Positions 37,478 through 40,990 of a stretch of 64,000 nt of DNA are shown piece by piece; the stretch's first letter is position 1; each line of letters begins with the position of its first letter. Below the pieces are notes generated by a model. That model ran no database searches. It was not told the DNA's origin and was given only the letters and a program-made list of their open reading frames with translations. The position numbers and the translations under genes were made by a program. Source of the DNA: Bacillota bacterium (GTDB taxonomy: Bacteria > Bacillota > Sulfobacillia > RBS10-35 > JAJYVN01); contig JAJZZC010000001.1 of NCBI GenBank assembly GCA_021797775.1, positions 3,049 through 67,048 on the forward strand, read 5' to 3'.

Positions 37478-38426
37478 TGGACAGGCCTCCCGCCCTGCGG
37501 CGCGCTCGTGGCGGGCCTGCCCGCCACGCGGCCGGCATCCAGTGCTATGCCCGGGACCATCCCCGTAGAGACGCCGGCTTCCCGCGACACGCCGACCTCG
37601 GGGGTGGCGGCGGCGCAGCGACGTGGGCGCCGGACGGGCAGCCACGCCGGCGGCCGCACCCGGAGCGCTACCCCCTGCAGGGCGGCCGGCACCCGCAAGA
37701 ACGACGCCACCCCGATAAGCGGTACCGGGCCACGTCACTCTCAGCGGCTGGCCTATACGACGGCGATTGCCGGGCACGTCAGCCACCAGGGCGTACATCG
37801 GCCGGGAGGTGCTCAGAGGTAAAGAGGCGCGCGTGTGCCCGGTGGGGCCCCCACAGGCGCCGCCCAGGCGCCTCCAAGGACCATCACATCGCATCGGGGG
37901 GGTGTGCACCCGCGCCCCGGCGGGGCCACCGTCCCCTGGGCAAAGACACCGCCCCGCTCAGCGGGACAGGACTGTGACGCTCCTGGCGAACAGCTTGAGC
38001 TTCAGGGCATGGCAGGGAGCGGGCGAAACGGGAGCGGACGTGCGCCCGTGGATTGCGGGCTGGACGCCCCCGTCGCCGCCGCCAGCGGAACCGCCTGTGG
38101 CCCAAGCCGGTGGGGCGCAGGCGCGGGCGCGGGCAACCGGCGCGCCGCGCCTGCCGGGAACTCGGCACGGCGCCGCCACGGCCAAGGGCCTCCCGGCAGC
38201 GCCCCCTCCGAAGCAAAATTCGACTGCAGGACTCCGCCGCACGACAGCGAATAGCCGCAATCGCCTCTGTAGCATTTTTTGCCTGTGCGGGCACGAAGGG
38301 GGATCATGAGCGGGGTTAGAGCCGAGTCGGCCAGGTTCATCCGACCACCGCGGGATCACGGCCCTGAGCGAAGCGGTTGTCGTCCCTTAGACGAGCCCCA
38401 AGCATGCGGTAGAGGGGGTGTCGCAC

Positions 38427-38534
38427 ATGAAGATGGTAAGGCTGCTCCGGGTGATGTTCCTCGTCGCCGGTGTGCTGGCGGTCGTAGCCGCTGGGCACCC
38501 GGGCCCGTTCGACATTTGGATTCCCGGCCTGTAG
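38427..38534 (+). CDS. 35-aa putative exported signalling peptide precursor
   Basis: AGAGGGGGTG RBS; MKMVRLLRVMFLVAGVLAVVAAGHPGPFDIWIPGL*, with a basic n-region, a hydrophobic h-region and a polar/aromatic tail. Below the ORF-track size cutoff. Confidence 0.7.
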   Translation: MKMVRLLRVMFLVAGVLAVVAAGHPGPFDIWIPGL

Positions 38535-38601
38535 GGGTCCGCCCGAATTTCCGCGGGGTCGGTATTTTTCGGACATCGCTCTGGCGAGGGAGCGCAACGC
38601 G

Positions 38602-39882
38602 GTGGGCGACCGGCGTGCCAAGGTGGCATTCAACGGTTTGGCCGTCTTGCTGTGGTTGGGCGTAGTTGTGGCGTTCCTCGGTTCGCCGCCCTGGGCCCCT
38701 GGCAGCCTGCTCCTGCTGGCGGTGTTCGCCGCCGCGACAGCCCTGTTCACCGGCCTGCGCGTCCGCATGGGCCGCTTCGATGTCTCCAGCGCGGCGCTGG
38801 TCGGTTACATCTCCATCGCCGTCATCGGCCCCCGCGCCGCCGCGCTCGTCAAGCTCGCCAGCGGGCTCGGCATGGCGTGGGACAACGGGCGCGGCATGTC
38901 TGGGCCCCGCACCAGCCTGCGGTGGTTCGCCTACCAGGCGCCGACGGCCATGCTGATGACGCTGCTGGCCGGCATCGCCTACGTGGCGCTAGGCGGTCCC
39001 GTGGGCCCCACGCCCCACAGGGGTCCCGGCTGGATCCTGCCCTACCTGGTGATGGAGGTCGTCTACACCCTGGTCAACGTCGCCGTCCTCTCCCTGCAGG
39101 CGGCCTGCAAGGAATGGCGCCGTCCCACCGGGTTTGCGCGCGACCTCCTGCGCCGGGTCGGCGCCAGCGTTGGCGTCTTCGCCGTGGTCGGCGTCGTGCT
39201 GCAGTCCATGTACTACCAACTGGGCCCCATCAGCCTGGCCTTCATGGTGGGCCTGCTACTACTGGCCCGCCTGGTCGTGCGGCTGTACGCCGAGAACCAG
39301 GATGTCGTCTCCGAGATGTCCTCCACCCTGGCGCGCATGCTGACGATGCGCGACCCGTACACCGGGGGGCATTCCCGCCGCGTCGCCGACCTAGCGGTCA
39401 CCATCGGCCGCGTCCTCGGCCTCACGGACGCCCAGCTCGAACGGCTGCGCAATTCCGCCTTGGTGCACGACATCGGTAAGGTGGCGGTGCCGGACGCGGT
39501 GCTGCGCAAGCCGGGCCCCCTCGATCCCGACGAATGGGTCTCCATGGACGTGCACGTGGAGGCGGGCGGCGAACTCCTGGAACACTCGCCCCACCTGCGC
39601 CACCTGGCCGAATACGTGCGTGGCCACCACGTCGACTACGGGGCGAGCGAGCCCCAAGGAACCGGCGCGGTCCGCGGTCTCCCGCTGGAGGCCCGCATCA
39701 TCGCGGTGGCCGACGCATTCGACGCGATGACCAGCGACCGCCCCTACCGCAACGCCCTCCCCGTGGCGGAGGCCGTGCGCCGACTACGCGCAGGATGCGG
39801 CTCGCAGTTCGACCCCGCGTGCGTGGACGGGCTCGTACGGGGGCTTGGCCTGGGTAGCGTCCCTGGTCCCGCGCCTCACTGA
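38602..39882 (+). CDS. membrane-sensor HD-GYP-like phosphohydrolase
   Basis: About 6-7 N-terminal TM segments; RDPYTGGHSRRV, HDIGK, LRKPGPL, ARIIAVADAFDAMTSDRPYR, GSQFDP. Confidence 0.92.
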   Translation: MGDRRAKVAFNGLAVLLWLGVVVAFLGSPPWAPGSLLLLAVFAAATALFTGLRVRMGRFDVSSAALVGYISIAVIGPRAAALVKLASGLGMAWDNGRGMSGPRTSLRWFAYQAPTAMLMTLLAGIAYVALGGPVGPTPHRGPGWILPYLVMEVVYTLVNVAVLSLQAACKEWRRPTGFARDLLRRVGASVGVFAVVGVVLQSMYYQLGPISLAFMVGLLLLARLVVRLYAENQDVVSEMSSTLARMLTMRDPYTGGHSRRVADLAVTIGRVLGLTDAQLERLRNSALVHDIGKVAVPDAVLRKPGPLDPDEWVSMDVHVEAGGELLEHSPHLRHLAEYVRGHHVDYGASEPQGTGAVRGLPLEARIIAVADAFDAMTSDRPYRNALPVAEAVRRLRAGCGSQFDPACVDGLVRGLGLGSVPGPAPH

Positions 39883-39910
39883 TCCCTGCTGCACTCTTCC
39901 CGGCTATCCG

Positions 39911-40447
39911 CTAGCCGGCGGGGCGCCGGGATGGTTGCGGTTGTTCGGCGAGATCCGTACGCTGGGCCGGCGTCTCCTCTCCGGCGGCAGCCGCCTGTCC
40001 CATACCCAGTTCCTCGCGCCCCTGACGAATGACGGCGACCGCCTTCATCATGTGCGACTCCACGCGCTCCATGAGTTCATCGGCGTAGTCGCGGGCGGCC
40101 AACCGGATCTCTCTGCTCACGCGCCGGGCCTCCTCCATGACCCGGTCCGCCTCCTCCTGTGCCTTCTGGGTGATGGCCGACTCCCGCGCCATCTTCTCCG
40201 CGTAGACCCGCGACTCGTTGATGAGCGCGTCACCCTCCTCGCGGGCCTGTTGCAGCAGACGATCACGCTCGCGGTTGACCTTTTGCGCCTGATGCAGGGC
40301 TTCGGGAATGGATTGGCGGAGGCGGTCGATGATCTCGAACACCTCCTGTTCGTTGACCATGAGCCTGCCGGTCAACGGGATACGGCTGGAATCGGCCAGG
40401 TACCCCTCCAGCTCGTCGAGCAACGCAAGAAGGTCCTGCTCACCCAT
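39911..40447 (-). CDS. conserved coiled-coil protein downstream of coaD (DivIVA/ATP synthase b-like)
   Basis: LLDELE...IPLTGRLMV...IDRLRQSIPEAL...RDYADE; usual neighbour of coaD. Confidence 0.85.
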   Translation of the reverse strand: MGEQDLLALLDELEGYLADSSRIPLTGRLMVNEQEVFEIIDRLRQSIPEALHQAQKVNRERDRLLQQAREEGDALINESRVYAEKMARESAITQKAQEEADRVMEEARRVSREIRLAARDYADELMERVESHMMKAVAVIRQGREELGMGQAAAAGEETPAQRTDLAEQPQPSRRPAG

Positions 40448-40498: not shown

Positions 40499-40990
40499 TC
40501 AGTTCCGCGCCGTGCCGAATTTCTCCCTCAGGCGGCAGCTGACGTGATCGGGGACGAGGCCGGAGATGTCGCCGCCCCAGCGGGCCACTTCCTTTACCAG
40601 CGACGAACTGAGAAACGAGTGCGCCGGGCGCGTCATCATGAAGAGGGTCTCCAGCTCCGCATAGAGCTGCTTGTTCATCTCCGCCATGGCCAGCTCGTAC
40701 TCGAAGTCAGAAACCGCCCGCAGCCCCCGTAGCACGATGCGGATCCCCCGGTCCCGCGCGTAGGCCGTGAGCAAGCCCGATGCGGCCTCGACGCGCACGT
40801 TGGGTAGGTGCGCGGTGGCTACGCGCAGCATGTCCACCCGTTCAGCCGCCGTGAAGAGGGGCGACTTCCCCATATTGGTAAACACAGCAACATACAGCAG
40901 ATCGACGACGGGCGCCGCCCGCTCAATGACGTCCAGGTGCCCGTTGGTCACCGGATCAAAGCTGCCCGGGCAAAGAGCCGAGCCCTGCAC
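40499..40990 (-). CDS. coaD: pantetheine-phosphate adenylyltransferase
   Basis: PGSFDPVTNGHLD, RGLRAVSDFEYE, SSSLVKEVA. Confidence 0.97.
   Translation of the reverse strand: MQGSALCPGSFDPVTNGHLDVIERAAPVVDLLYVAVFTNMGKSPLFTAAERVDMLRVATAHLPNVRVEAASGLLTAYARDRGIRIVLRGLRAVSDFEYELAMAEMNKQLYAELETLFMMTRPAHSFLSSSLVKEVARWGGDISGLVPDHVSCRLREKFGTARN

Follow-up and report, generated by a model that had tools for sequence, protein, structure and literature searches.

The stretch of DNA analyzed here (the window) comprises 64,000 nucleotides (nt) of contig JAJZZC010000001.1 from a Bacillota bacterium of the class Sulfobacillia, and the element under study is a pair of genes at its positions 38427 to 39882, in which a very small gene is followed on the same (+) strand by the gene for a membrane-sensor HD-family enzyme. 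The small gene has 35 codons (38427, ATG, to 38534, end of TAG) and encodes a peptide with a basic N-terminus, a hydrophobic stretch and a 12-residue Pro/Trp tail, which matched the family profile described below with an E value of 1.7e-5. Its ribosome-binding site (RBS), read from the sequence as GAGGGGG (38412..38418, + strand), is purine-rich and ends 8 nt 5' of the ATG, and similarly spaced purine-rich sites precede the homologous small open reading frames (ORFs) in most of 26 loci. The last 12 codons (38496..38531, + strand), which encode the tail, showed 79% nucleotide identity to a second copy on contig C159 of the same genome. A spacer of 67 nt (38535..38601, + strand), which includes the RBS of the enzyme gene at 38586-38592, separates the small gene from the enzyme gene (38602..39882, + strand), which has a GTG start and encodes 426 amino acids (aa; AlphaFold2 (AF2) model with a mean predicted local distance difference test score (pLDDT) of 89.6). 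The N-terminal integral-membrane sensor domain (residues 1-240, 38602..39321, + strand) is of MASE9 type by orthology and has an ECF S-component-like fold in the predicted model. It is followed by a catalytic domain of HD_5 or HD-GYP type (residues 242-406, 39325..39819, + strand; Pfam HD_5, E 1.7e-30), in which the alignment of residues 342-361 (39625..39684, + strand) showed a degenerate motif, with the His-His pair kept and the next Glu and the Gly-Tyr-Pro absent. A first-pass annotation of this DNA had described a 35-aa ORF with a good RBS and a codirectional membrane HD-family gene 67 nt further on, and these coordinates were confirmed.

Conservation of the small gene and its linkage to the enzyme gene

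For the forward test, enzyme homologues were collected from 40 related genomes, and the DNA upstream of each was scanned by a fixed rule, which accepted an ORF of <=60 codons if some 14-residue stretch of it reached a mean hydropathy of >=2.2 and was preceded by a basic residue. Exactly one ORF matched the rule upstream of the enzyme gene in 26 of 30 homologous loci; these ORFs were all alike and lay 16-170 nt from the estimated enzyme start. Applied to 346 control windows of equal size from the same loci, the rule fired in 2. Fetched loci are given here by L numbers, G000 stands for the window's genome and f1 for its family. At L031, the C159 copy in G000, a homologous small ORF was present but fell below the hydropathy threshold; L022 is truncated where its contig ends, L024 is a paralogue in a genome whose peptide match adjoins another enzyme-gene copy, and L037 is a distant paralogue. 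The first-pass annotation had proposed a search for conserved short hydrophobic ORFs with variable Trp-containing tails upstream of the homologues; the ORFs were found, but the Trp-containing tails proved to be conserved and not variable.

For the reverse test, a 25-position profile was built from the 26 peptides and used in a six-frame search. At E <= 1e-3 there were 86 rows from the class, which came from 84 of its 151 genomes. In a sample of the phylum 68 of 301 genomes were matched, of which 60 do not belong to the class, and many families gave no match. In both sets a genome usually had a single match. The enzyme gene lay directly downstream on the same strand in 29 of the 30 best class loci, the remaining one being cut by a contig end, and in 28 of 29 phylum-sample loci, where the remaining one was 545 nt from a contig end. 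Combined, 57 of the 59 peptide loci examined had the enzyme gene directly downstream, and the other two were near contig ends. No other gene is as tightly linked to the small gene as that of the membrane-sensor enzyme, with which it stays across a class and part of a phylum.

The ratio of nonsynonymous to synonymous change (pN/pS) was 0.27 in frame, in comparison with 1.35 and 3.27 in the shifted frames (20 anchored codons, 70 unique genes, 102 non-independent pairs). The entropy at the three codon positions was 1.17, 0.66 and 1.75 bits, so that third positions varied most. The small ORF is therefore a real gene, and purifying selection acts on the peptide that it encodes. A chance frame was also considered, since many frames rich in Ala, Val and Leu arise in GC-rich genomes, but the contrast between the homologous loci and the controls, the profile matches with the enzyme gene downstream and the in-frame pN/pS refuted it, and the probability of this explanation is practically nil.

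The small gene is largely uncalled. Only two of 10 peptides were present in a collection of 15 billion proteins, and neither was named; the ESM Atlas contains the exact sequence of the window peptide, and the nearest clusters are nameless. Among sequencing data sets, none of RNA was listed as carrying this DNA, and six of DNA were, four of them from one study of mine drainage, with the possible source among them. Pfam and NCBIfam scans of the window peptide and two relatives gave nothing above chance; the only family to turn up was PhrK, for the peptide of one relative and at a chance-level score (E 0.022; 15 bits, where the cut-off is 35). A search of wider taxa with the full-length enzyme alignment returned mainly unrelated HD-GYP proteins from many phyla. 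From 80 loci, the 13 whose match reached furthest into the membrane domain were chosen, and small-ORF candidates were found at three of them (L150, L151 and L168) with a looser hydropathy threshold of 2.0. At L150 (2554-2845; Actinomycetota metagenome-assembled genome record PMKX01000159.1), two small ORFs built alike, with a basic start, a hydrophobic run, small residues and a Lys-Trp-Ser end, lie in tandem ahead of a full-length enzyme homologue with 31% identity over residues 4-412.

Column statistics were taken over 68 unique peptides. The members of the family have 24-35 aa, and the window peptide (35 aa) is the longest and most divergent of them, with a long tail; counted from the profile start, 65 of the 68 have 24-26 residues. 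A basic residue was found at profile position 3 in 59 and at position 6 in 54 peptides. It is followed by a hydrophobic run of about 14 residues across the class, with small residues every three to four positions, which ends in a near-invariant AGGA (Ala17 in 65 of 68, then Gly in 52 or Ala in 14, Gly19 in 66 and Ala20 in 62). The tail then has the order polar residue, aromatic or aliphatic residue, Gln/Arg/Lys, Trp (position 24, 38/68), Gly (42/68) and stop, and 41 of the 68 have a Trp within the last four residues. The tail columns were conserved, not diversified, across families and classes. The hydrophobic part was likewise conserved column by column across the class, which fits a packed helix. 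The window peptide and its C159 paralogue have the 12-residue tail in common. No peptide-enzyme fusion was found among the 68, a count that is uninformative, since the expected topologies would forbid fusion.

In the class, hpf is usually followed by a gene of about 220 codons, and then come the peptide gene, the enzyme gene in one copy or two, DUF5317 and secA. The gene between hpf and the peptide gene is conserved, has ~215-260 codons and belongs to no Pfam or NCBIfam family (L019 495-1181, L028 574-1221 and others); it is not beside the pair in f1. The f1 genomes have the pair of peptide and enzyme genes between ylbJ and coaD, away from DUF5317. In the window, ylbJ (TIGR02871, 36251-37909) and coaD (40499-40990) are on the minus strand, and between the enzyme gene and coaD there is a minus-strand coiled-coil ORF of 178 residues (39911-40447) with a weak likeness to ATP-synthase b and DivIVA models, which two or more further f1 genera (L004 and L005) also have at this position. 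The neighbours ylbJ, the coiled-coil ORF, coaD, rsmD and gpr indicate an endospore-former. Other f1 genera share the placement of the pair: ylbJ lies upstream of it in L002, L004 and L005, and in L004, L005 and L006 coaD lies downstream. The pair had been taken for an inserted cassette; it does lie between opposite-strand genes, but the same placement in other f1 genera means that the insertion is not recent. In G004, also of f1, DUF5317 lies between a recN-like gene and spoIVB, and there was no peptide gene beside DUF5317 in the f1 loci fetched (G004 and G001).

The second pair in G000, on contig C159, has an enzyme 85% identical to that of the window. The identity between the two copies was 38% upstream and 70% at the RBS, so that homology starts at the RBS of the small gene; it was 56% in the hydrophobic part, which carries an in-frame indel of 12 nt (4 codons), while the tail and the start of the enzyme gene each reached 79% and the spacer 60%. 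Because ylbJ and gpr are single-copy in G000, the C159 pair is most simply explained as a duplication of the pair as a unit. The origin of this copy from a second strain in the bin, which is conceivable at a contamination of 6.7%, was not supported, ylbJ and gpr being single-copy. The linkage of the peptide gene to the enzyme gene survives both relocation and duplication. The C159 pair adjoins a GGDEF-methyltransferase gene (L031 2092-3357, minus strand), and the family of this fusion is strongly expanded in G000, where it has 11 other places. Of the 12 matches that reach E <= 1e-20 in all, nine cover almost the full length.

Of the 84 class genomes with a peptide match, 83 also had DUF5317, a membrane protein, as did 27 of the 67 others, a count in which related genomes are non-independent and which overstates the support. 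Several of those 27 genomes had weak peptide matches next to DUF5317. Peptide and enzyme were both present in G025, a 96%-complete genome with no DUF5317 match. An alignment of 17 DUF5317 sequences showed an invariant Asn, a Met-Pro-Val and two invariant Asp, one of them in an SxGD motif. The DUF5317 model (pLDDT 90.7) had no structural relative reaching Z 8 among 48,161 chains, the best Z being 7.7. The only DUF5317 matches of G000 (L183, on G000:C398, 341-1059) are split over two frames by a frameshift or an assembly error. About 250 nt 3' of this remnant, the same long frame ends in a stretch that resembles an f1 peptide, which the peptide profile did not match.

The enzyme: sensor and catalytic domains

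The AF2 model of the enzyme showed a helical membrane domain at residues 2-250, ahead of HD_5. Among 26 aligned orthologues, 18 matched Pfam MASE9 (PF20972), with a best E of 3e-12. For the enzyme of the window itself there was no MASE9 match at E <= 1, and its alignment with the orthologues was continuous over the domain. Pfam ECF-ribofla_trS was matched by eight of the 26 (best E 3.5e-6) and not by the window's own protein. The sensor-domain model was also compared with known structures. It matched the FolT chain 5d0y_A with Z 13.6 and a root-mean-square deviation of 2.9 over 153 aligned of 155 residues, 4hzu_S with Z 13.1, the RibU chain 5kbw_A with Z 13.0, and the NikM/CbiM-type chain 4m5c_A with Z 13.0 over residues 6-210, including the first helix; these matches rest on a predicted model, and a Z of ~13 is at the edge of the safe range for helical bundles. 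A profile search against the PDB sequences gave an E of only 0.98 (4hzu_S). The sensor domain is thus predicted to be a MASE9-type domain with a six-helix S-component fold, and its homology to the ECF S components is likely, not proven. No EcfT or EcfA genes were found among the window neighbours, and in the literature searched we found no paper linking MASE9 or HD-GYP with the S-component fold.

The catalytic domain matched 9rbz_A (Z 21.3), 4mcw_A (Z 19.9) and 4r8z_B (Z 19.6). Residues H257, H289, D290, H318, H342, H343 and D371 were invariant in 26 aligned sequences. The canonical His-His-Glu ... Gly-Tyr/Phe-Pro motif was present in all 19 orthologues at the order and class level. The Glu after His-His and the GYP motif were absent from the window protein, its paralogue and five other f1 sequences (7/7 in f1). 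On a quick maximum-likelihood tree the loss of GYP was a single change, with the f1 clade (support 99) sister to family f5. The Tyr of the GYP motif contacts c-di-GMP (cyclic dimeric guanosine monophosphate) according to the available text of a preprint on MASE9 proteins (10.1101/2021.11.05.467447). With its metal ligands kept and the GYP motif lost, the window protein has an uncertain substrate and even an uncertain status as an enzyme. The first-pass annotation had called it HD-GYP-like, which held for the HD fold with its metal-binding His and Asp but not for the GYP motif, and had linked it to cyclic dinucleotide (c-di-NMP) turnover, which is uncertain here, the motif and the Glu being lost in the whole of f1.

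The loss of Glu and GYP in f1 coincides with the move of the pair away from DUF5317 (window, L002-L006 and L031). Two tandem copies of the membrane HD-GYP gene were seen in several genomes of the class (G039:C14, G027:C34, G024:C2, G034:C253 and G040:C50); in G039 and G034, which were compared by coordinates, a single peptide gene precedes the tandem enzyme copies and DUF5317 follows them.

Possible roles of the peptide

We favour the reading that the small gene encodes a resident membrane micro-protein which acts as a partner of the MASE9-type domain of the downstream enzyme, and we give it a probability of about one half. Its membrane insertion, topology, physical contact and effect on catalysis are what we infer. 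The peptide and the enzyme would be made from one transcript, and the peptide would insert with its N-terminus inside and its C-terminus outside and stay in the membrane, where the small-residue face of its helix would pack against the sensor domain. The short aromatic tail would face outwards, at the outward side of the S-component-like domain, and the peptide would set or relay the state of the cytoplasmic HD domain. This partner model is favoured because the helix is conserved column by column, the length is fixed, the end residues are of an interface type, and the linkage to the enzyme survives the break-up of the module. It is also in keeping with the predicted S-component fold; proteins of this fold bind small ligands on the outward side of the membrane. 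The earlier proposal that the peptide is the ligand or partner of the sensor stands to the extent that a functional link is the best reading of the linkage across the class, the relocation and the duplication; the secreted pheromone that it also proposed is unsupported. What speaks against a secreted pheromone that reports cell density is the tail, which is conserved and not diversified, the near-fixed length, and the neighbours, since no transporter, export gene or known processing gene was found among the adjacent genes of the window with Pfam, NCBIfam and the ORF list.

Several observations weigh against a resident partner, and most of them would suit a processed signal peptide, which would be cut at or after the AGGA-type site to release an aromatic tail of 5-12 residues that binds the S-component-like pocket. 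The cutter would be signal peptidase I or DUF5317, and the tail would serve as an autocrine or a population signal. In the window's genus the hydrophobic part (56%, with the 4-codon indel) is less conserved than the tail (79%), and the C159 peptide has only ~13 hydrophobic residues, which resembles a signal peptide more than a membrane anchor. Across the class, too, an n-region, a short h-region of ~14 residues and small residues before the tail fit a signal-peptidase-type site. The module normally includes DUF5317, a possible peptide processor with two invariant Asp, one of them in SxGD, and the co-occurrence counts given above favour its involvement. The two tandem peptide genes at one Actinomycetota locus are unusual for a 1:1 subunit, and the binding of small ligands on the outside by S-component folds would provide a site for a released tail. 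However, the tail is conserved across families and classes, unlike the known pheromones, which diversify, and so are, throughout the class, the individual positions of the hydrophobic part. In f1 the peptide stays with the enzyme and not with DUF5317, G025 has no DUF5317 match, no transporter or known processing gene adjoins the pair in the window, and co-occurrence within a three-gene operon cannot tell which pairs interact. We consider a processed signal peptide somewhat unlikely. A more specific form of it, which we hold to be unlikely, is that DUF5317 is a two-aspartate intramembrane peptidase which cuts a lipobox-like, cysteine-free site, and that the Trp tail is captured by MASE9 and switches a c-di-GMP-type enzyme. 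If this were true, there would be a peptide-to-second-messenger pathway across spore-forming Bacillota and other phyla, and the f1 module would be a rewired form of it, unlinked from DUF5317, with a longer tail and an output without GYP. The partner model was also examined by co-folding the peptide with sensor residues 1-240; the scores of 0.10, 0.35 and 0.02 against a mark of 0.32, obtained without controls, weigh neither way.

The strong three-way co-occurrence, together with the peptide-like stretch after the DUF5317 remnant in G000:C398, would also be accounted for if the main partner of the peptide were DUF5317 or another membrane component, with the peptide as substrate, cofactor or assembly factor and its adjacency to the enzyme gene due to a shared operon or regulation. 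This is quite improbable, because in f1 it is with the enzyme gene that the peptide gene has moved and been duplicated, while DUF5317 is left without a peptide gene, and because the enzyme gene is directly downstream at nearly all of the examined peptide loci. A cis-acting leader ORF, whose translation, possibly with a Trp-dependent pause near its end, would control the downstream gene and which would have no function in trans, agrees with the position directly upstream and with the frequent Trp among the last four residues. RNA-level tests did not bear this out. The fold was not unusual at 38380-38640 (z +0.94) or 38130-38430 (z +0.49) or across 25 loci (mean z 0.03), no Rfam match was found in 37700-38750, and no sigma-70-like promoter or + strand terminator was flagged in 37850-40000, including between the two genes. 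In addition, the enzyme gene has its own RBS, the gap between peptide and enzyme gene ranges from 1 to 154 nt among the loci, and the whole hydrophobic helix is conserved, which a pause signal would not need. A leader ORF is highly improbable.

The inputs of most membrane-bound c-di-GMP enzymes are unknown, and the peptide, whose gene stands in front of this poorly understood sensor in many spore-formers, is a strong candidate for its working partner or its signal. A strictly linked and mostly uncalled micro-protein gene that occurs phylum-wide offers a concrete candidate for the input of MASE9 or for a missing subunit, and the S-component-like fold, as predicted, suggests where a ligand or the peptide tail would bind. 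In the family f1, nature itself has parted the pair of peptide and enzyme from DUF5317, and the output domain is seen there to drift from canonical HD-GYP chemistry.

Comparison with known systems

Gram-positive pheromone precursors such as Phr, AgrD and ComX are short and are encoded beside the gene for their receptor. The window shares with them a short ORF beside a presumed receptor gene. In contrast, there is here no RRNPP or histidine-kinase receptor, no adjacent AgrB- or ComQ-type gene and no pro-region, and while the mature part of Phr, AgrD and ComX is strain-specific, the would-be mature part here is conserved across classes.

The ECF S components (5d0y, 4hzu, 4m5c and 5x3x) are matched by the predicted sensor fold over nearly their whole length. 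The window domain differs from them in that it is fused to a signalling output, has no EcfT or EcfA beside it and shows weak sequence similarity. S components of the CbiM type work with a small membrane protein, CbiN. CbiN has two helices and a loop, whereas the window peptide would have one helix.

MASE9-HD-GYP proteins include TM1467 of T. maritima and HdgA of S. venezuelae, and MASE9 is described as a membrane sensor for which intramembrane ligand binding has been proposed, with the ligand unnamed, in the available text of 10.1101/2021.11.05.467447. The window enzyme has the same architecture, a polytopic membrane domain followed by an HD-GYP-type domain, but it falls short of the Pfam MASE9 model and has no GYP. 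The words 'upstream', 'small protein' and 'ECF' did not occur in the main text of that preprint, as far as available, and the available text of a 2025 review on bacterial small membrane proteins (PMC12648545) contained no c-di-GMP, phosphodiesterase, HD-GYP or diguanylate. In the literature that we searched, we found no description of the module of peptide and MASE9-HD-GYP protein and none of DUF5317, and the accessible texts joining HD-GYP or c-di-GMP phosphodiesterases with a small membrane protein held nothing on this module. New here are the linkage test, which for this lineage was run in both directions and with controls, the S-component-like sensor fold, the loss of GYP, and the natural separation of the pair from DUF5317.

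MgrB and SafA are small single-pass membrane proteins that regulate the sensor kinase PhoQ (PMC8404706, available text). Like the window peptide, as judged by analogy, they are very small, have a single helix and expose only a short segment on the outer side, and the part of the signalling protein on which they act is that in the membrane or the periplasm; the traits of a small single-pass regulator (<50 aa, one hydrophobic helix, basic residues on its N-side and a short tail) are present in the 68 members of the peptide family. The differences are that their target is a histidine kinase, whereas here it would be an HD-domain enzyme with a polytopic MASE9 sensor, and that MgrB has 47 aa in comparison with the 24-35 aa of the window peptide family. 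Unlike MgrB and SafA, this family is always encoded directly upstream of its presumed target. Action of the MgrB/SafA type is the mechanism that we favour for the window peptide.

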